From NCBI GenBank assembly GCA_016839945.1, contig JAEOTE010000104.1:1-31268 (forward strand): 31,268 nucleotides of DNA, given 5' to 3'. This document shows, in pieces, positions 5,025 through 16,271 of this stretch; the stretch's first letter is position 1, and each line of letters opens with the position of its first letter. The notes beneath the pieces were generated by a model, which was not told where the DNA came from, made no database searches, and saw nothing but the letters and a program-made list of their open reading frames with translations. A program made the translations under genes and the position numbers. This stretch comes from Candidatus Heimdallarchaeota archaeon (GTDB taxonomy: Archaea; Asgardarchaeota; Heimdallarchaeia; Heimdallarchaeales; Heimdallarchaeaceae).

Positions 5025-6248
5025 TTAAAAAAAATCTTGTACTTGAGGTGTAGAATCTGGATAAAAATCTCTGATATTCTTTGTGATATCTATTGCGATT
5101 TGACCTGTTTTACCATGAACTGAAAAAGGCATTCTGCTAACTCTTCTAGTATCCATTGTAACTTTACGATCTATTCTTGGATATCTATACAAGAGAATTT
5201 GACTTGAGAAATATTTTCTTAATTTTGTGTTTTCTGGTATAAGAATGTTATATTGATTATGATCAAAATTATCGATCTCTTTGATTCTTCGTAAAATCCT
5301 CTTTGCTTTGTTCTCAGTTAAACCAAATTCATTGAGTCTCTCTAATTCTTCCTCTAATTCCTTACGTGAGAAATTTTCTAAATCCTCTCCATGACAGTAT
5401 GGACATTTAATTTGATATTGCTTTAAACTAGATTCTATTTTGTCAAAACTCATTCCTTTAACTTCTTTTCCAATTGTTTCACTTAGTATCTCATAAGCTT
5501 TCATTTTTGAATTACAATTTCTACATTGAAGCAGAGGATTAACTGGATTAAGCAATGAGGGAAGAAATGATTTTTCTAAATACGATTTAGCCACCAAAGC
5601 ATATATTCTGTTTCGTAATGGTTTTGCTTCATTTGGAATCTCTTCGATAGATTGTGTTCTCTTCTTATCATGGACAAACGTAAGATAATCTAATATTGCT
5701 AGTCTTTGAGGTTGATCAAAATTTCTAGTTATTTCATCTAAAATCCAAGCATGTACTCCTCTTCTACCTGAATAAAACCAAATGACTTCTTTAAAACCAA
5801 AATCCTCTTTCATTGTTTTATCAATAAAAACTGCAGCATCTTGAACAAGAGACCAGCAATCCTTGCAAAAAACATCACCTTTACATCCACAAGTTCTTAC
5901 ACCTACATATTTCCCATCTTCATTATATGCATCATATTCGTCAATATCAATATCAAAAATAAATTCTCTATATTTCCATTTTATTTTTTGAATTGGAAAA
6001 TCCTTTGAAGGAGGTGTTTCATAAACAGCTCCAACATAAGCATGTTTTACTGAATTCTTTATCATAAAATCAAGCATATTTTTTGGTTTATGAAAAGAAA
6101 TATTTCGTACAAATCTATCCTCCCCAACAACAAATCCAAATTCTCTATTATGAAAGTCAGTTTTATCAATAAGAGAAGTAAATCGATCCAAAGGGAAATG
6201 ATCTTCATAGTACTTAGATATAGTCTCAGGCTTTAATTTCTTCATCAT
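5025..6248 (-). CDS. priS: DNA primase small (catalytic) subunit, eukaryote-like, with an extra zinc-ribbon insertion
   Basis: REFGF, EFIFDID, Zn motif CGC..FCKDCW, YSGRRGVH, YPRID, RMPFSVHGKTG. Start moved from 6305 to the ATG at 6248 because GAGGAGG (SD) lies about 8 nt upstream of it on the minus strand. Confidence 0.95.
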   Translation of the reverse strand: MMKKLKPETISKYYEDHFPLDRFTSLIDKTDFHNREFGFVVGEDRFVRNISFHKPKNMLDFMIKNSVKHAYVGAVYETPPSKDFPIQKIKWKYREFIFDIDIDEYDAYNEDGKYVGVRTCGCKGDVFCKDCWSLVQDAAVFIDKTMKEDFGFKEVIWFYSGRRGVHAWILDEITRNFDQPQRLAILDYLTFVHDKKRTQSIEEIPNEAKPLRNRIYALVAKSYLEKSFLPSLLNPVNPLLQCRNCNSKMKAYEILSETIGKEVKGMSFDKIESSLKQYQIKCPYCHGEDLENFSRKELEEELERLNEFGLTENKAKRILRRIKEIDNFDHNQYNILIPENTKLRKYFSSQILLYRYPRIDRKVTMDTRRVSRMPFSVHGKTGQIAIDITKNIRDFYPDSTPQVQDFF

Positions 6249-7605
6249 TAATATTTTCCTCCTCTGATGTTTCATCATCAGATTTATCATCAGATTTTTT
6301 ACCAAAGAACTTCTTGTATGCTTGACGTGAATAATTTAGCATATGGTTAATTCTTCTACCTCTAACATTCCATCCTGTATAGAGAGTGAAAAATCTTGCA
6401 CATGCTGATTGAAAACGTTGATTTATAATAAGTCTTGAAATATCATCAATTGCTTTATCAATAATACTTTCACTTTTATCTTTAAAACGGATTTTTATAT
6501 CTTCGACTATGTCTTCTAGTTTCTTATGAGCCCAATAGCAATAATATGCATTAATGCAAGTTTTGCAGCTTGGTGGAGAATAGTCAATACCTCCTCCTTC
6601 AATTCCATATATGTGTCTGATTTGGTAACCAATTCTCTGAACAAATTCTTCATATGTCATGCCTACATTATCGACTGAATTCTCGTACCAAAATTTATAC
6701 TGGTCATTAATTTTCATACCAGCCCTTTTAAGAAATGTGCCAACTTGCCAGTTTTCTGCATGAGATAAATGGCCTTCTGACTGTAAAACTCTAACTAGTT
6801 CGAGGATACATGGGGGGTAGCTTTCTGGCTTTGTGAATATAGCTTCACCTTCCTCAATTCCTAATCTTGAGAAATCACCTGCCACTCTAGCAGATCTTGC
6901 AATCTCTGTGATTTTATCTTTTATAGGCTTAATAGTTTCCTCCAAATCAGTAATTCTTTCTATGATCTCCTTAGATTTTTCTAAGATAGAAATAAATTGC
7001 TTCTCAAACTCTCTCTTTACTACTAATCTTATATCTGCCAATCTAACTATTGCCCACCCTTGATAAAGAAGGGCTTTTTTAGCTGCTATAATGGGTGAGA
7101 TTTTGTGAAATCTAATTGCTACTCTTTTATCGAGATCTTTAACAGTTGTACCAAATTTGCTCCTTTCATACCGACTAGGCTTTGTAGGTGTATCTGCTAA
7201 GTGGAACCTCTCATAAAAATCAAAATTAAAATCTTGATTCAGAGTATTTATGGTCTTGATATTTTTTTCTCCATAAAGGTCCTTTAACACATTTATTTTT
7301 TCATCAAAATCAGAGCTACTTACAAAACGAAATTCAAAAAGATCACCTTCAACCTCTTTAAGCCAAGATGCTAAACGAGGATCTTTAGAAACTGCTAAAC
7401 GTAGGAGAAAATGACCACCAATTTCCTCAACTTTAGTTTTAAACCATTCATCTTCAGTAATCCATGTAGGTCTATTTATTATCCAAAGATCTTGAGATAA
7501 AAATCTTTCAAGTCGTTTCTCTGCAAAACTGTACCAACTATCTACCTCTATTGTAATATCACCTGGATCTTTAAGAATATACCAATCTGGAAGTTCGAAA
7601 GACAT
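6226..7605 (-). CDS. priL: DNA primase large (regulatory, Fe-S) subunit, eukaryote-like
   Basis: HFLLRLA, EGDLFEFRF, YPPCI, HLSHAENWQVGTFLK, YQIRHIYG, YSPPSCKTC, CYW, SACARFF, INH. Overlaps the priS start by 23 nt. Confidence 0.95.
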   Translation of the reverse strand: MSFELPDWYILKDPGDITIEVDSWYSFAEKRLERFLSQDLWIINRPTWITEDEWFKTKVEEIGGHFLLRLAVSKDPRLASWLKEVEGDLFEFRFVSSSDFDEKINVLKDLYGEKNIKTINTLNQDFNFDFYERFHLADTPTKPSRYERSKFGTTVKDLDKRVAIRFHKISPIIAAKKALLYQGWAIVRLADIRLVVKREFEKQFISILEKSKEIIERITDLEETIKPIKDKITEIARSARVAGDFSRLGIEEGEAIFTKPESYPPCILELVRVLQSEGHLSHAENWQVGTFLKRAGMKINDQYKFWYENSVDNVGMTYEEFVQRIGYQIRHIYGIEGGGIDYSPPSCKTCINAYYCYWAHKKLEDIVEDIKIRFKDKSESIIDKAIDDISRLIINQRFQSACARFFTLYTGWNVRGRRINHMLNYSRQAYKKFFGKKSDDKSDDETSEEENINDEEIKA

Positions 7606-7643
7606 AAATTTTTCCTTTAAAGTTGTTACACTTAAACATATTA

Positions 7644-8774
7644 TTAAAAAAACTGTGTTAAAGTTTTTTGGTTGTCAGTTATTTTTAGAAGATTAGAAAT
7701 TTTAACACCCAACAATCTAATTTGAAAAGGTTTCTTGTCTTTAAATTCTTCCAATAACATATTTACAACCTCTTTAACTTGCTTTTTAGACATAACATGA
7801 CAAGAAAGAGAATAGCTTCTAGTAAAAGTTTCAAAATCTTGAAAACGAATTTTCAATGTTATTGTTCGAAAATTCATATTTTTCTTCTTAGCTTTTGTTA
7901 CTATAGTTTCAATAGAAGAGTCAATTAGAACATCAATATCTTTCCAATCCTTTGGACGATTGAAAAATGTTCTTTCTTCACTAATAGATTTTATTTCTCT
8001 GCTATTGAATTTATCATCCGTATTTTCTGTATTATAACCGTTAACTAATTTCCATGTTTTAAGTCCAGTTTTTCCAAATTTTTGATGTGCAAGCTGATAA
8101 GGAATCATTGCTAAATCTCCACAAGTTGTAATATTGTTATCATGGAAAATTTTGGAACTCTTTTTGCCTATCCCTGGAATTATTGTTATTTCTAATGGTG
8201 ATAAAAATTCTGAAATTTTCAAAGGTTTTACGACAACCAAACCATTTGGTTTATCAGTGTCACTCCCTATTTTTGCGAGAATTTTATTAGGCGCTATTCC
8301 AATAGAACTTGTGAGTTTTTCACTTGCATAAATGTCATCTTTTAGTTCAATTGCTAATTGCTTAGCTTCTTCATAATCAGATACAATATCAGTTAAATCC
8401 AAATAAGCTTCATCGTTACCCGCTACTTTCATTATTGGTGAATAATGTTTCAAAATATTCATTATTCTTTTTGATACTTCGGAATATAACCTAAAAGACC
8501 CTCTAACCATTGTTAAATTAGGACATAATTTTAACGCTTGAGAAATAGACATGCCTGAATGAATGCCATATTCTCTAGCTTCGTAAGAACATGTACTTAC
8601 TACACCTTGTTTTGTGTTTGGATTCCCTCCTACAACAATGGGTAATCCTGCTAATGAAGGATTTTCTCTTATTTCAACAGCTGCAAAAAAAGCATCCAAA
8701 TCCATATAGAGAATTATAGAATCAAATGTGTGTTCTTTCTCTGAGAAATATGGTATTTGGTTAACAATTGCCAT
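7644..8774 (-). CDS. dinB: Y-family DNA polymerase IV (DinB/Dbh) with C-terminal PIP box
   Basis: DLDAFFAAVE, STCSYEAREYGIHSGM, NDEAYLD, SIGIAPNKILAKIGSDTDKPNG, IPGIG, little-finger domain, C-terminal QKTLTQFF. The ATG at 8774 is preferred over TTG at 8813. Confidence 0.96.
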   Translation of the reverse strand: MAIVNQIPYFSEKEHTFDSIILYMDLDAFFAAVEIRENPSLAGLPIVVGGNPNTKQGVVSTCSYEAREYGIHSGMSISQALKLCPNLTMVRGSFRLYSEVSKRIMNILKHYSPIMKVAGNDEAYLDLTDIVSDYEEAKQLAIELKDDIYASEKLTSSIGIAPNKILAKIGSDTDKPNGLVVVKPLKISEFLSPLEITIIPGIGKKSSKIFHDNNITTCGDLAMIPYQLAHQKFGKTGLKTWKLVNGYNTENTDDKFNSREIKSISEERTFFNRPKDWKDIDVLIDSSIETIVTKAKKKNMNFRTITLKIRFQDFETFTRSYSLSCHVMSKKQVKEVVNMLLEEFKDKKPFQIRLLGVKISNLLKITDNQKTLTQFF

Positions 8775-8835
8775 GTCAAGAGAAAATTGCCATTTAGCTA
8801 TATAAACCCCCAAAAAAAGATATAAAGAAGAGAAA

Positions 8836-10854
8836 TTACTTTCTCTTTTTTTGTAGAATAATTAATGTAACAAGAGCAAATATGGTAAGTAAAGGTATAG
8901 CAATGTAGGTTGTAAACTCAGGAGTTAAAGGTGTTCCTGGAGTTGGTGTATCTATTATAAAATCATCATTACAATTATCAGTATCTTGGTTTGCTGGACT
9001 TCTCTGAAGGGTTTCATCTTCTCCTGTAGATCCTCCGCTCCAAGATGTTACTCCTCCAACTGATCCTGATCCCCAAGCAACAGCATCTTTTAGATTATCA
9101 TCTGGATCTCTTAGTATTATAACGTCTCCAGAATTAGCAAGTTGAAGATCACCTAATCCATAATCTGCTGCTGAAACTGTTATACCTAATGCTCCCATCT
9201 CACTTACGTACGTTGCACTATCCTGAGCAAAGATGAGTAAAGCTCCCGCATCTATTTGTGCGTTTTCTGGAATGGTATAGACATCTGCATTATCTTCAAG
9301 TTTCCAATTTTCTATATATACATCAAAACTAAAAGCATTGTACAATTCAACGAATTCTCCATTTGGTTCCGTATCAGCATCATATCTTATTTCTGAAATT
9401 AATAATAACCAATCAGCGGTGTTGATTATATTCACTTTCTTCTCAATTTCTATTGGATCTCCAACGGTTGGTGTTCCAATTACCTTCACAGTATGAATTC
9501 CATCACTATATCCTGTAGTGTCTATAGTTGTACTTTCTAATCCTAATGGATCTGGCCAAGTAGCAATACTTACTGAATCAATAAACAATTCTCCTAATGT
9601 GTAAGTGTTAATTGCAAAATTAGCTTGGAATTCAAAACTTCCATCTGCAATACCACCGGGTTTTGGTGATACGAGAGACACAGGTTGAGTAAAACCAACA
9701 GGAGTTTCACTATTTGCCCAATCGAAGTCAAAAACAGTCTTGAAAAATGCAGCTACGTTAGCATTTTTTACTATAGCTCCAGCTTCTCTATTGTTCACAA
9801 CAGAGTTATTAGACCAATTAATACTTGATACTTGTACAACTTCATTGTCAACAGAAACATACTTGTTGTGACAGTGTCCTAAACCTTTGAAGAATTTAAC
9901 CTGAATTCCGTGATTGATGAGTGTCTCTGTAACATTTTCATTTGCTACACCTGGTTCAGGTATTAAAACTCTAATCGAAACTCCCCTTAAAGCTGCATCC
10001 AAAACATCATCCAACAGATCACAATCAAATTTCATATATTGAAGTTCAAGATCTATAGAAGTGGTTGCATTTTGAATAAGGCTGGATAGAAGTTCATAGC
10101 TATTATTAGGTGAAAATATTGGTGTTACTTCTGCATACTCAATGAAGTTTGCTGTACTGAAAGGGTGAGTATATGTTCCTGAAGTTTCATTGGCTTGAAG
10201 ATAACCAACATGAGCTCCTGGAGTATAAGGTGTTGAACGATATAATCCATCATCAAGAAAAACATTTTCAAAGTGTGCTGCGATAGTTGAATCATTGAAT
10301 GCTAATCCCATTTCCCTGTTAGTTCTAGCTTCTGGTGCTTGAGGAATACTCGAGGGAGCCCAGTTGCCAGAATAAACATAAGCAACTTGACTATCAACAA
10401 TCCAGAATTTTGAGTGAGTAAATACAAACGCTACTTTATCAATCCAGTATACATCAATACCAGCAGCATCTAACCTGTATGCTGCTTCTTCAGTATAATC
10501 ATCTTCATAGGAATTTACTCTATCTTCTGATAGTTGAATTACTACGTCAACACCTCGGTTATGAGCTCTTATTAACTCATTAACTAGAGGCTCACTAGAC
10601 AAAGTGTATACTTCTAAATAAAAAGAAGTTTTAGCTGATTTTATTGAATCCATAACTACTTTGTATGCGGTATCTGGACCAACAAATGCTGTTATGTTTG
10701 TAGTTCCTTTGTAAGTAGTAGAAGAAGTAGGTACGATTTTTTCATCAAAAACTGGTAAATCTTCTGCTTGAGCTAAGTTTTCACTTATATATGTACTGAA
10801 AATAGGTAACAGCAGTATAAACACAAAAAGTGTTGTTAATTTTTTATTGTTCAT
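8836..10854 (-). CDS. Secreted, membrane-anchored phospholipase D-family protein (two HKD motifs, Ig-like region, lamin-tail domain, PEF-type C-terminal anchor)
   Basis: Signal peptide MNNKKLTTLFVFILLLPIF, HSKFWIVD..SGNW..NREMG, HNKYVSVD..SINW..NREAG, LTD motifs LLISEIRYD..EFVELYN..L.NSGD..TPTPG, tail PEF-TM-QKKRK. Confidence 0.88.
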   Translation of the reverse strand: MNNKKLTTLFVFILLLPIFSTYISENLAQAEDLPVFDEKIVPTSSTTYKGTTNITAFVGPDTAYKVVMDSIKSAKTSFYLEVYTLSSEPLVNELIRAHNRGVDVVIQLSEDRVNSYEDDYTEEAAYRLDAAGIDVYWIDKVAFVFTHSKFWIVDSQVAYVYSGNWAPSSIPQAPEARTNREMGLAFNDSTIAAHFENVFLDDGLYRSTPYTPGAHVGYLQANETSGTYTHPFSTANFIEYAEVTPIFSPNNSYELLSSLIQNATTSIDLELQYMKFDCDLLDDVLDAALRGVSIRVLIPEPGVANENVTETLINHGIQVKFFKGLGHCHNKYVSVDNEVVQVSSINWSNNSVVNNREAGAIVKNANVAAFFKTVFDFDWANSETPVGFTQPVSLVSPKPGGIADGSFEFQANFAINTYTLGELFIDSVSIATWPDPLGLESTTIDTTGYSDGIHTVKVIGTPTVGDPIEIEKKVNIINTADWLLLISEIRYDADTEPNGEFVELYNAFSFDVYIENWKLEDNADVYTIPENAQIDAGALLIFAQDSATYVSEMGALGITVSAADYGLGDLQLANSGDVIILRDPDDNLKDAVAWGSGSVGGVTSWSGGSTGEDETLQRSPANQDTDNCNDDFIIDTPTPGTPLTPEFTTYIAIPLLTIFALVTLIILQKKRK

Positions 10855-10915
10855 ATTATATTAGAGAAAAAATCATTAATAAATATCTATCGTAAAAGCA
10901 AGAATTAGTTGATTT

Positions 10916-11368
10916 TTACTTATCTTTGAGGATAGAAACAGCTTTAACTACATCTGGTGGAGTATTAGGCCTTTTTACAACTCTTTTAAGTTGCTTGAGA
11001 TATTGATTATACTCCTTTTCGCTGATTTCCAAAGAAGTTATTATCTCTTCTTTTGACAATTGTTCAACATTGGGGATGTCAACCACTTCTGATGCAAAAT
11101 TCATTGGAGACATTTTTTCAGCTTCTAAATCTCTTGGGTCTCCCCAAAATTGTTTTAAGAAGGAAATATCTTCTTCTTTTGCCCCCCATACAAAAATATA
11201 CAGTTTATTATCTCTTATTTTCTCAGTTATTGCTATCCTATTTTTGACAAATACAAAATAACCCTCTCCTGTGTCCTGTTGAATTGTTTGTGTATTATAA
11301 TGATTTGCAATTTCTTGAAGTTGGTTTAAGGATTTTTGATTGTCAATAGGTCCAAAAATAGCTTTCAT
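10916..11368 (-). CDS. Hypothetical protein
   Basis: 150-aa ATG ORF with typical composition, co-oriented between the XPD and PLD genes. No family recognised. Confidence 0.75.
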   Translation of the reverse strand: MKAIFGPIDNQKSLNQLQEIANHYNTQTIQQDTGEGYFVFVKNRIAITEKIRDNKLYIFVWGAKEEDISFLKQFWGDPRDLEAEKMSPMNFASEVVDIPNVEQLSKEEIITSLEISEKEYNQYLKQLKRVVKRPNTPPDVVKAVSILKDK

Positions 11369-11435
11369 AATATTTTACTATTGAAAGTATAATAAAATTG
11401 TTTCGATGAAAAAACTTCTTTGGGTAGATAGTCTC

Positions 11436-13589
11436 CTATGTTTTATGAAAATTGAAAAATTTGTCAACTTTTACTACTATATTATCTGGTTCAGGTTGCA
11501 CTACTGACATATTCTGTTTTAGCCATATAGGTAAATGTTTTTTGTAATAAAATCTAGCAAAACGATAATCCATTAAGACAATGACTGCAAAATCTTCTAG
11601 GCTTCTTATCGGTCTTCCTGCAGCTTGAGAAGCTCTTGTTAATGCGGGAATATTATATCCGTATTCTCTTCCTTTGGTGGGAAATTGACTTTCAAGATAT
11701 TCAATACTTGCATCTATTGTTGGACAAGGTTTAGCATAAGGAATCCCCACAATAATAACAGTGTGCATTTCACCTGAGGGATAATCACTCCCTTCAGACG
11801 ATCTTCCACCTAAAACAGATATTAAAACTCCACCTGATTTCTTGGATTCGTTCTTGAATTTATTTACTAGTTTATCATTTTCAAGAGATGTCATTCCTTG
11901 ATGAGCTATAAAAAGTGGTTTTGGTATCATTCTTTCTAAACCCATCTCTAACAAGCTAGACATTACAGAGTAACTAGCACAAAAGATACCAACATTCTTA
12001 GGAGTAGTTTCAACAACTCCTTGGATGAGCTCAAGCATTTTTGAGTAATTAGCTGGAACTCTGTCTTCTAATTTTGATGATAGTTTGTCAACTACTAAAG
12101 TAATGTGATTCTCTTCTTTATAGGGTGAAGGTAGAGCACTACTCTCTACTTTATTTGGATTCATTCCAACTAATGATATGTAGGCTTCAATAGGATCTAA
12201 TGTACCTGAAGCAGATACAGAACAATGGACATTAGTAAGTAATTCTTCTGTTACTGATCTTGGGTCAAGACAAAGTGTAAGTAATTTCGGAACTGGAGCA
12301 CCTCTTTGTGTTAATATTTTTGTAACAAAGTGTGCATAATCATTTCTGTTTTTTGTTTTAGTGAAAGTAGTAAGATATCTAGCTACAATTGAAATATAAG
12401 AAAAAGGAGCTCTATTTTGTTTTATTAGCTCTCTTTTAATTTGTTCACCTATCTTAACTATAGATTTTACTAACTCTGAATCGATTGTGAGATGAGATCT
12501 TTTTTCTACTTTCTTTATGAAATCCTTTGGTTCGATTCTCATTTCATCATCATTAGCTAAATCAAAAGCTTCTTTTGTTAAAACTTCCTCTAAAGCCTCC
12601 AATAAATCAAAAACCTCACCCATTTTGTATTTAGTAGCTTCAGTTTGAGCGTTGCTTATAGTAGAATTTGATAAAGTGGCACTACTTATATCCACAGCTG
12701 TAGATGGAAGATTGTGAGCTTCATCAATTACCAGAATAATCTCAGATAATTCTTTTTCAAGACTTGTCAAAAAAGTGTTCTGAATTCGAGGATTGAAGAT
12801 ATATTGATAACTGCATGCAACTACATCAACTTTTGATAGTAATCTTGTTGATAGCTCTAAAGGACAAACCTCTAGAGATTTACCAATTTCTAAAAGCTCA
12901 TCACTGTCTAGTACTTTTCCTTCAGTTGTTTTTTTTACTTTTTCAATTATTTTTTTATCAGATAATCTTGTAAAGAATTTACACTTTCTTTCCTCTTTCA
13001 AGAAGTTACAGATTTCTGAAGCATTCCCTGAATCAAATGCGAATTTTTTTACTAATGGATGTAAACAAATTTCTCTTCTACCACGCAAAGCAATTCCTGA
13101 TACTGGGGTAAGTTGTTTAATCATTTCAAGTTCTGAAATAACTCTGCTCATTTGTTGATGAGTTCTACAACAATAAACTATAGTTTTCTTTTTCTTCTTA
13201 ATTATGGGTAAAAGAGATGCAAGAATTGCTATTGTCTTACCAACACCATTAGCAGCTTGTATAATGCTGTGATTTCCTTTATTACTAGCTGAATTTATAT
13301 TCTTAATAATTTCATCTTGTAGAGGTCTTACTTCAATATATGGGAAATATTTTTGCCAAGGTTCTTTTGTTTCATCAATAAGAGTCTCTTTACTCTTAAT
13401 TTTCTTCTCTTTAACGATTTGTTTTACTTTTTTAGAACCAACAGTACTTTTGATTGTGTAACCACACTTAGTGCAATTTAAGCTATGGATACTTGGAACA
13501 AGTATTTTACCACAGTTAGGACAAAAAGTAAAATCTTGTGAACTTTCAACCTTTTCTTCTCTATTATTTGCACTCATTGGTTCTTGCAT
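11436..13589 (-). CDS. xpd: XPD/Rad3-family Fe-S DNA helicase (SF2) with N-terminal zinc ribbon
   Basis: Q motif FPY..VRPLQ, Walker A AANGVGKT, RTHQQ, Fe-S cysteines (CLHP, EICN, KCKFF, CPLE), DEAH, SGTL, SEG.DY, VGIPY, QAAGRPIR, DYRF. N-terminal FCPNCG..LNCTKCGY. Confidence 0.95.
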   Translation of the reverse strand: MQEPMSANNREEKVESSQDFTFCPNCGKILVPSIHSLNCTKCGYTIKSTVGSKKVKQIVKEKKIKSKETLIDETKEPWQKYFPYIEVRPLQDEIIKNINSASNKGNHSIIQAANGVGKTIAILASLLPIIKKKKKTIVYCCRTHQQMSRVISELEMIKQLTPVSGIALRGRREICLHPLVKKFAFDSGNASEICNFLKEERKCKFFTRLSDKKIIEKVKKTTEGKVLDSDELLEIGKSLEVCPLELSTRLLSKVDVVACSYQYIFNPRIQNTFLTSLEKELSEIILVIDEAHNLPSTAVDISSATLSNSTISNAQTEATKYKMGEVFDLLEALEEVLTKEAFDLANDDEMRIEPKDFIKKVEKRSHLTIDSELVKSIVKIGEQIKRELIKQNRAPFSYISIVARYLTTFTKTKNRNDYAHFVTKILTQRGAPVPKLLTLCLDPRSVTEELLTNVHCSVSASGTLDPIEAYISLVGMNPNKVESSALPSPYKEENHITLVVDKLSSKLEDRVPANYSKMLELIQGVVETTPKNVGIFCASYSVMSSLLEMGLERMIPKPLFIAHQGMTSLENDKLVNKFKNESKKSGGVLISVLGGRSSEGSDYPSGEMHTVIIVGIPYAKPCPTIDASIEYLESQFPTKGREYGYNIPALTRASQAAGRPIRSLEDFAVIVLMDYRFARFYYKKHLPIWLKQNMSVVQPEPDNIVVKVDKFFNFHKT

Positions 13590-15713: not shown

Positions 15714-16271
15714 GTGAATTACATGCAATTTAGGGAAGACAAGTTCAAACAGAATTGGCAAGAAGCTCAAAAAAGCATCGCTAATTTTCTTGAAAAAAAT
15801 AGTTTCATGGTTTGGGAAGAGAGGGCAATAGAAAACAGAAGAGTAGATATTTTAGCAAAACGATCATTCAATAACAAGGCTTACTATTTAGTTTTTGAAG
15901 TGAAACATTATGAGAAAATAACTCCAAATATAGAGGATAAATCACTAGAACAACTAGAAGATTATCTAAAGTTACTTGTTAATAGAGAACTAGAAAGAAA
16001 GACAAAAAAAAGTCTTTTAGAGAATTATCTTTTTGTTGGATATCTTGTATTATCAAAAGATTATGGAATATATTTAAATCGTAAGAAAAACTGGAGAAAA
16101 AAACAATATTTTTCAGATGATGAAGTCCTCAATGAAATTTGGAGAAGAAATGTCTTCTTGTTTTGTTCTTCTCAGGCACACATACAGTCTAACCTTGAAT
16201 CCATCGGTTTTGCGTTTTATTCCCAATCAAAACTCTCTGATTTTTTTGAAAGTGGAATACAAAAACAATAA
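15714..16271 (+). CDS. PD-(D/E)xK restriction-fold nuclease (NucS-C/Hjc/Mrr-like) with C-terminal PIP box
   Basis: E..RRVDILAK..LVFEVKH..QLEDY (QxxxY) motif order and C-terminal QSKLSDFF. The start may be the ATG at 15723. Confidence 0.75.
   Translation: MNYMQFREDKFKQNWQEAQKSIANFLEKNSFMVWEERAIENRRVDILAKRSFNNKAYYLVFEVKHYEKITPNIEDKSLEQLEDYLKLLVNRELERKTKKSLLENYLFVGYLVLSKDYGIYLNRKKNWRKKQYFSDDEVLNEIWRRNVFLFCSSQAHIQSNLESIGFAFYSQSKLSDFFESGIQKQ

Follow-up and report, generated by a model that had tools for sequence, protein, structure and literature searches.

The xpd helicase gene of Candidatus Heimdallarchaeota archaeon (family Heimdallarchaeaceae; assembly GCA_016839945.1) lies on contig JAEOTE010000104.1, in a stretch of 31,268 nucleotides that was analysed at its full length and is referred to below as the window. 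The gene occupies positions 11436..13589 on the minus strand; according to the open reading frame (ORF) list and its translation, it encodes 717 amino acids plus a stop codon. The protein consists of an N-terminal leader, a zinc ribbon, a linker and an XPD/Rad3 helicase core, and its N-terminus reads MQEPMSANNREEKVESSQDFTFCPNCGKILVPSIHSLNCTKCGYTIKSTVGSKKVKQIVKEKKIKSKETLIDETKEPWQKYFPY. The observation of an XPD that carries a lineage-specific ribbon of the TFS type is confirmed here; the interpretation put on it is partly supported, with docking on RNA polymerase as its hypothetical core.

The leader (residues 1-20; 13530..13589, minus strand) is variable and predicted to be disordered; its sequence and length differ among orthologues, and predicted local distance difference test (pLDDT) values are below 50 at residues 1-19. 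It is followed by a C4 zinc ribbon, FCPNCGKILVPSIHSLNCTKCGY (residues 21-44; 13458..13529, minus strand), of the TFS/Rpb9 N-ribbon type with cysteines at positions 23, 26, 39 and 42. A low-complexity linker of ~33 residues (residues 45-77; 13359..13457, minus strand) joins ribbon and core; it is Lys-rich in this protein, and pLDDT is below 50 at residues 49-73. A first-pass annotation had described an XPD helicase to which a C4 ribbon is added at the N-terminus. This is borne out by the Pfam and TIGR00604 matches and by the motifs; its coordinates and quoted residues are correct, and the span that it marked (13370-13530) takes in both ribbon and linker on the minus strand.

The helicase core (residues 78-717; 11439..13358, minus strand) comprises helicase domain 1 (HD1), a 4Fe-4S domain, the Arch (HBB) domain and helicase domain 2 (HD2). 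It contains the Q motif RPLQ (88-91), the Walker A motif GVGKT (115-119), the DEAH box (289-292) and the Fe-S cysteines C175, C194, C203 and C242; in an alignment of 56 relatives, these cysteines, Walker A and DEAH show no variation or almost none. Pfam families DEAD_2 (PF06733; 114 bits), Helicase_C_2 (PF13307; 118.9 bits) and HBB (PF06777; 75.6 bits, residues 328-508) all match far above their cut-offs, and the HBB region is also confidently folded in the AlphaFold2 model. For the NCBIfam model TIGR00604 (rad3), the score is 332 bits and the cut-off 246.95. Judged by these matches, the protein is the organism's intact XPD/Rad3 Fe-S helicase and an ordinary member of its family; 5'-3' helicase activity dependent on single-stranded DNA is the function predicted from this membership.

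The best solved relatives of the core in a PDB sequence search are the XPD structures of Thermoplasma acidophilum (4a15/9p55, E ~2e-56). Thermoplasma XPD scores 195 bits over residues 86-687, while human XPD scores 136 bits in two stretches. The first-pass description of the helicase as eukaryote-like is thus unsupported, because the core scores nearer to Thermoplasma than to human XPD. The same genome has a second, distant helicase gene of the DEAD_2 family (contig C121:7597-8106, 55 bits, locus L010). Similar paralogues in relatives are ~785 amino acids long and 25-28% identical to XPD, and give no ribbon match.

The full AlphaFold2 model, built from the 56-sequence alignment, has a mean pLDDT of 88.4, with most of the core above 90. 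Residues 1-19 and 49-73 are disordered, and no packing of the ribbon on the core is predicted with confidence. The ribbon itself is modelled as a small three-stranded fold, with pLDDT of 65-73 in the full model and 78-83 when modelled alone.

A homologue search over 5.8 billion proteins returned ~49 close relatives of 49-91% identity. The sources that name these relatives assign them to Heimdallarchaeaceae. Absence of the ribbon from close orthologues had been singled out beforehand as a sign against polymerase docking; every full-length close orthologue carries the ribbon. Across 37 distinct orthologue ribbons, the phenylalanine before the first cysteine, the four cysteines, and the glycine and lysine after the second cysteine are invariant; the leader and linker drift freely around them in the orthologue alignment. 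Since these residues are fixed while their surroundings vary, the ribbon is neither a chance pattern nor a mis-called start. At the level of aligned sequences, this confirms that the ribbon is real and conserved under selection.

The distribution of the fusion was followed in the organism's own family (f1, with five genera) and in sister families of the same class, including f4 and f7. XPD orthologues align from the N-terminus in 28 of the 30 f1 genomes, in frames of 700-760 amino acids. Those of f4 and f7 (37-43% identity) align only from query residue 60-80, in frames of ~650 amino acids; their genes begin directly before the FPY/Q motif and have no upstream ribbon frame. At three f7 loci, no separate ribbon ORF was found within ~1.5 kb of the ribbon-less xpd, and a split-gene form, with the ribbon on an ORF of its own, was rejected on this ground. 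A survey across Asgard archaea, proposed in the first-pass annotation, places the fusion in a single family: among 201 genomes sampled across the phylum, strong ribbon-profile matches in XPD-sized frames are confined to f1, and none was found outside it.

In a quick maximum-likelihood tree (IQ-TREE), the 34 ribbon-bearing XPD sequences form one clade with an SH-aLRT value of 100; the alignment included the ribbon columns, ~30 of 715, which introduces a small circularity. A single gain is the simplest reading because the ribbon-bearing sequences form one clade; on that reading, and as far as the tree can tell, the ribbon was acquired once, in the ancestor of Heimdallarchaeaceae.

The ribbon has the pattern FCPNCGKIL-x9-CTKCGY. 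It conforms to the C4 form CxxC-x(11-17)-CxxC, with phenylalanine before the first cysteine and a hydrophobic pair after the first knuckle. When PF02150 was searched against all six frames of the whole 3-Mb genome, an 86-residue protein with a TFS N-ribbon (the TFS-N protein; 38.9 bits) and TFS (33.8 bits) scored above the cut-off, and the XPD ribbon came third with 23.1 bits. The genome's canonical TFS is encoded on contig C38; it is 114 amino acids long and has a C-ribbon with QTRSADE.

The reverse search gives the same picture. A profile of the 37 XPD ribbons, run against all six frames of the genome, finds besides XPD only TFS and the TFS-N protein (E 1.6e-6 and 4.5e-6); the next match, among 123 scored candidates, has an E-value of 0.03. 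The same set of about three matches is repeated in f1 genomes: XPD, a frame of ~89 amino acids and one of ~115. In hhalign comparisons, XPD ribbons match the family's TFS-type ribbons with a probability of 98.9 (E 3.9e-17); the control, a comparison with MBF1 ribbons from the same genomes, gives a probability of 17.

Family-specific residues point in the same direction. The XPD ribbon and f1 TFS have FCPxCGK[IL]L in common, while the TFS of five other families reads FC[ED]xC[GED]S[LM]. The TFS of genus g5, LEFCPKCGKLLIPESSKLICTKCGYT, has the same short 12-residue loop between the knuckles and a pattern near-identical to that of the window's ribbon. In NCBIfam, the only non-helicase matches of note are TFS_arch (TIGR01384, E 2e-6) and TFS4 (E 0.002). 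RPA12 N-ribbons rank first in a PDB profile search, and the TFS4 chain 7oqy_Y is among the matches. Foldseek, run with the isolated N-terminal model against the PDB, also places 7oqy_Y first, and its top 50 are mostly Rpb9/A12/C11 chains. The polymerase entries are redundant, and since E <=0.001 is reached by none of the Foldseek matches, it is the rank order alone that is suggestive.

The first-pass claim of a TFS-like ribbon thus stands in that the nearest relatives within the same genome are TFS-type N-ribbons, by reciprocal profile searches, hhalign and NCBIfam. Its more specific expectation of profile matches holds in part: TIGR01384 (TFS_arch) matches at E 2e-6, while Pfam PF02150 stays below its cut-off and level with generic ribbons. 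The best reading is that the ribbon probably descends from the lineage's own TFS ribbon, in which case it would have originated by duplication from TFS.

To our knowledge, polymerase docking is the sole role of this type of ribbon, which is otherwise found in Rpb9, A12.2, C11 and TFS. In the cryo-electron microscopy structure of Sulfolobus TFS4 with RNA polymerase, hydrophobic contacts hold the N-ribbon in place, with the upper jaw of Rpo1'' on one side and the Rpo2 lobe on the other (PMC8448823). In XPD, a mini-domain of ~28 residues would hang from helicase domain 1 on the disordered linker, which is predicted by modelling to act as a flexible tether. Because it appears to be independently folded on such a tether, the ribbon would work as a docking module and not as part of the motor. 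Its likeliest target would be the site that TFS-type N-ribbons take up on archaeal and eukaryotic RNA polymerases, at the same jaw and lobe on the side of the downstream DNA, where it would compete with TFS.

A docked ribbon would hold XPD beside an elongating or stalled polymerase, where the helicase could load on downstream DNA. A 5'-3' helicase on the template strand downstream of a stalled polymerase would approach both lesion and polymerase, in line with proposals for eukaryotic transcription-coupled nucleotide excision repair; by this analogy, the polarity of XPD would fit loading downstream of the polymerase. Possible roles include transcription-coupled repair, displacement of stalled polymerase and the resolution of transcription-replication conflicts.

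Co-folding of XPD residues 1-80 with Rpo1'' (401 amino acids) and the Rpo2 lobe (231 amino acids), each with an alignment, gave a score of 0.03 against a mark of 0.32; this was one job without a TFS control and is counted neither way. The ribbon suggests, and does not show, a direct link from a repair helicase to the polymerase. Docking of the fused ribbon on RNA polymerase is a possibility held somewhat below even. The full account, in which XPD gained a TFS-derived ribbon once and is tethered by it near RNA polymerase, is likewise somewhat less than an even chance.

The strongest alternative is that the ribbon, whether TFS-derived or generic, no longer binds polymerase and has been repurposed. 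It might bind nucleic acid, for example in loading XPD on forked or damaged DNA, or a protein of repair or replication, with PCNA, RPA, a nuclease and a neighbouring gene's product as examples. A number of observations favour this alternative and weigh against docking. Firstly, Pfam does not separate the ribbon from generic families. Zn_ribbon_RPB9 (PF02150) scores 18.5 bits on the whole protein, 22.5 on residues 1-80 and 25.0 on residues 17-50, against a cut-off of 25.2; generic ribbons (Zn_Ribbon_1 with 26.9 bits, DZR, Zn_ribbon_3) equal or exceed it. Among the 37 orthologue ribbons, PF02150 matches 22 (best E 1.3e-8) and DZR 36. Pfam was rejected as sole discriminator of TFS-type from generic ribbons, as both score alike. 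As a whole protein, XPD is no TFS: TIGR01384 gives it 28.4 bits, below the cut-off of 64.75.

Secondly, ribbons of this shape occur outside TFS. An unrelated protein of ~220 amino acids from another Asgard family has an internal ribbon, GFCPNCGKIILKQDFSNRCSKCGY, which scores 41 bits on the XPD-ribbon profile, above TFS, and only 16.5 bits with PF02150. The XPD-ribbon profile is not exclusive to TFS, since this ribbon outscores TFS on it. Unrelated N-terminal ribbons are also present on other XPD-like helicases, such as P0070. The ~220-residue proteins are encoded at L144:22-681 (+) and L145:1423-2073 (-), in genomes G195 and G109. They have two internal zinc motifs, the first of which is near-identical in pattern to the XPD ribbon, and Pfam gives weak IBR and DZR matches.

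Thirdly, parts of TFS near the ribbon have no counterpart in XPD. The hydrophobic strand before the third cysteine ([IL]L[IV]C in TFS) is unconserved in XPD ribbons. The conserved TFS linker motif (F/H)TEE-x-H is missing, and the XPD linker is unconserved. TFS4 uses the initial stretch of its linker for two beta-additions to the jaw (PMC8448823), and XPD is without that jaw-contacting linker. The similar linker claimed in the first-pass annotation does not hold up: hhalign aligns XPD and TFS over the ribbon alone. The linker varies from 21 to 97 amino acids, is Lys-rich or basic in some orthologues, including the window's, and is acidic in several. The Lys-rich linker was rejected as a conserved TFS-like feature for these reasons. 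Its strongly basic character in the window's protein and some orthologues would suit binding of nucleic acid; against this, the basic linker is unconserved and gives way to acidic ones.

Finally, the conserved neighbours of xpd are replication and repair genes, not transcription genes. A same-strand run (window 5025-13589, minus strand) contains xpd, orf150, a gene for a PLD-like/lamin-tail-domain (PLD/LTD) protein, the Y-family polymerase gene dinB, priL and priS. Most f1 loci keep the run xpd-orf150-PLD/LTD-dinB-priL-priS; in genus g4, dinB-priL directly adjoins xpd. This repair and replication neighbourhood extends across the family and would suit a partner of that kind. The product of orf150 has no Pfam or NCBIfam match. 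It was considered as a ribbon-specific partner downstream of xpd and rejected: it is present in 11 of 12 f7 genomes, where XPD has no ribbon and the two genes are unlinked. This also tells against repurposing of the ribbon toward that neighbour.

On the other side of xpd, a TPR gene and a 185-residue ORF are divergently transcribed. The ORF (window 15714-16271, plus strand) matches no Pfam or NCBIfam family; the first-pass annotation took it for a putative PD-(D/E)xK nuclease that has a PIP box. Within f1 this ORF belongs to the divergent operon beside xpd, and in f7 (loci L049, L050 and L052) it is directly upstream of the ribbon-less xpd on the same strand. Because its linkage to xpd is kept across two families, the 185-residue product may be a working partner of XPD. 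The same linkage lends some weight to a ribbon that serves repair.

Two points stand against a repurposed ribbon: its sole significant relatives within the genome are two TFS-type ribbons, and polymerase docking is the only function known for such ribbons in Rpb9, A12.2, C11 and TFS (PMC8448823). On balance, repurposing is a serious contender to which we tentatively assign somewhat more than one chance in three. Docking should be viewed with caution, given that the jaw-binding linker is lost, the hairpin is altered and the neighbourhood is one of repair and replication.

Another explanation is a role of the ribbon in cis, either in self-association or as an element that inhibits or stabilises its own helicase by reversible docking, for example on the Arch domain, the Fe-S domain or the pore through which DNA enters. 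SF2 (superfamily 2) helicases are often regulated by N-terminal accessory domains, and with a tether of this length the ribbon could reach every face of the core. In the AlphaFold2 model, however, the ribbon (pLDDT 65-73, with flanks below 50) has no confident placement on the core; in addition, the fivefold variation in linker length is a poor fit to a fixed intramolecular geometry, and sister-family orthologues without the ribbon keep a similar core. A role in cis is improbable. That the extension is not made at all, with the true start near the core and the upstream frame an annotation artefact, has behind it only the general risk of over-extended ORF calls and is very improbable: the frame is open, the four cysteines and the F, G and K are invariant down to 49% identity while the flanks drift, residues 6-155 contain no methionine and so offer no methionine codon near the core start at ~residue 78 (GTG and TTG starts being outside this check), and sister-family genes start right before the FPY motif with no ribbon frame upstream.

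Polymerase docking by a TFS-derived ribbon can be compared with known systems. Characterised archaeal XPDs are stand-alone monomers with weak knockout phenotypes, and no pathway of nucleotide excision repair has been defined for Archaea (PMC7690668); the same goes for transcription-coupled repair based on XP-type proteins. The XPDs of Thermoplasma acidophilum (Ta0057; 4a15/2vsf/9p55) and Sulfolobus acidocaldarius (3crv) share with the window's protein the HD1/4Fe-4S/Arch/HD2 design of SF2 helicases, Walker A and DEAH. Characterised archaeal XPDs start just before the Q motif; the window's XPD adds 77 N-terminal residues with the tethered ribbon. Eukaryotic XPD/Rad3 in TFIIH (6nmi_B, 5fmf_Y) belongs to the same helicase family, and a link between XPD and polymerase is a eukaryotic theme. 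In contrast to the window's protein, eukaryotic XPD has no ribbon and reaches Pol II via TFIIH subunits and coupling factors; its similarity is also lower than that of archaeal XPD.

The likeness to the N-ribbons of TFS/TFS4, Rpb9, A12.2 and C11 (PF02150; TIGR01384; 7oqy_Y, 7ob9_I) consists of the C4 arrangement, the phenylalanine before the first cysteine and the pattern CPxCGxxL ... CxKCGY. The window's XPD differs from TFS in having neither the TFS linker motif nor the C-terminal catalytic ribbon (QTRSADE), nor a transcript-cleavage function; most f1 TFS have 3-5 more residues in the loop between the knuckles. If docking holds, XPD would share its logic with Mfd in bacteria and with CSB/ELOF1-dependent TFIIH recruitment in eukaryotes, where a polymerase-binding module brings a DNA motor to a stalled polymerase. 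Both are unrelated in sequence to the window's XPD and differ from it in binding site and motor polarity. A search of the available literature library returned no paper describing a fusion of XPD with a zinc ribbon in Asgard archaea.

Other polymerase-related genes in these genomes deserve mention. The 86-residue TFS-N protein is encoded outside the window (contig C133:94-351, plus strand; locus L001:94-351), where PF02150 gives 37.8 bits. Its TFS N-ribbon is followed by a linker resembling that of TFS (YEVxDEVEHK) and by an acidic tail with RRERFIEGIDFFETE at its end; the catalytic C-ribbon is missing. The protein is present in 28 of 30 f1 genomes, with looser relatives in two sister families, f3 and f4 (L142 and L143). 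A tail-only search had suggested that it is confined to the fusion-bearing family; this was rejected, and a shared distribution of the TFS-N protein and the XPD fusion does not hold because of the looser homologues in f3 and f4. The TFS-N protein may be a polymerase-bound derivative of TFS that competes with TFS.

In several f1 genomes (L002, L058, L059, L062, L065 and L068), TFS is divergent to an adjoining MBF1-like gene, whose product has an N-terminal CEMCG...CPSC ribbon and a helix-turn-helix. The Rpo1'' frames of G006, G007, G028, G032, G043, G045, G046 and G065 (e.g. L092-L094) are 860-1016 amino acids long, compared with ~400 elsewhere, and in these long frames the Rpo1'' match does not start before residue 80. 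Some relatives appear to have an intein inserted close to residue 80 of Rpo1''; the Rpo1'' of the window's own genome (G000, C5:1844-3046) has no such intein.

Heimdallarchaeaceae belong to a lineage near the eukaryotic stem, and throughout the family selection has kept XPD fused to the module that seats TFS, Rpb9, A12.2 and C11 on polymerase. It is somewhat less likely than not that the family physically couples XPD to RNA polymerase via a TFS-competing ribbon; it would then have an analogue of TFIIH recruitment in a single polypeptide, and Archaea their first defined transcription-coupled repair device of the eukaryote-like XP type. With the fusion, archaeal transcription-repair coupling becomes a simple question of binding, namely that of the ribbon to RNA polymerase and its competition with TFS. 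If the proposal is false, the case would serve as a warning of how portable and promiscuous short TFS-like ribbons are among Asgard genomes. If it is true, a link between XPD and the transcribing polymerase would be attainable by accretion of a single domain, independently of TFIIH.

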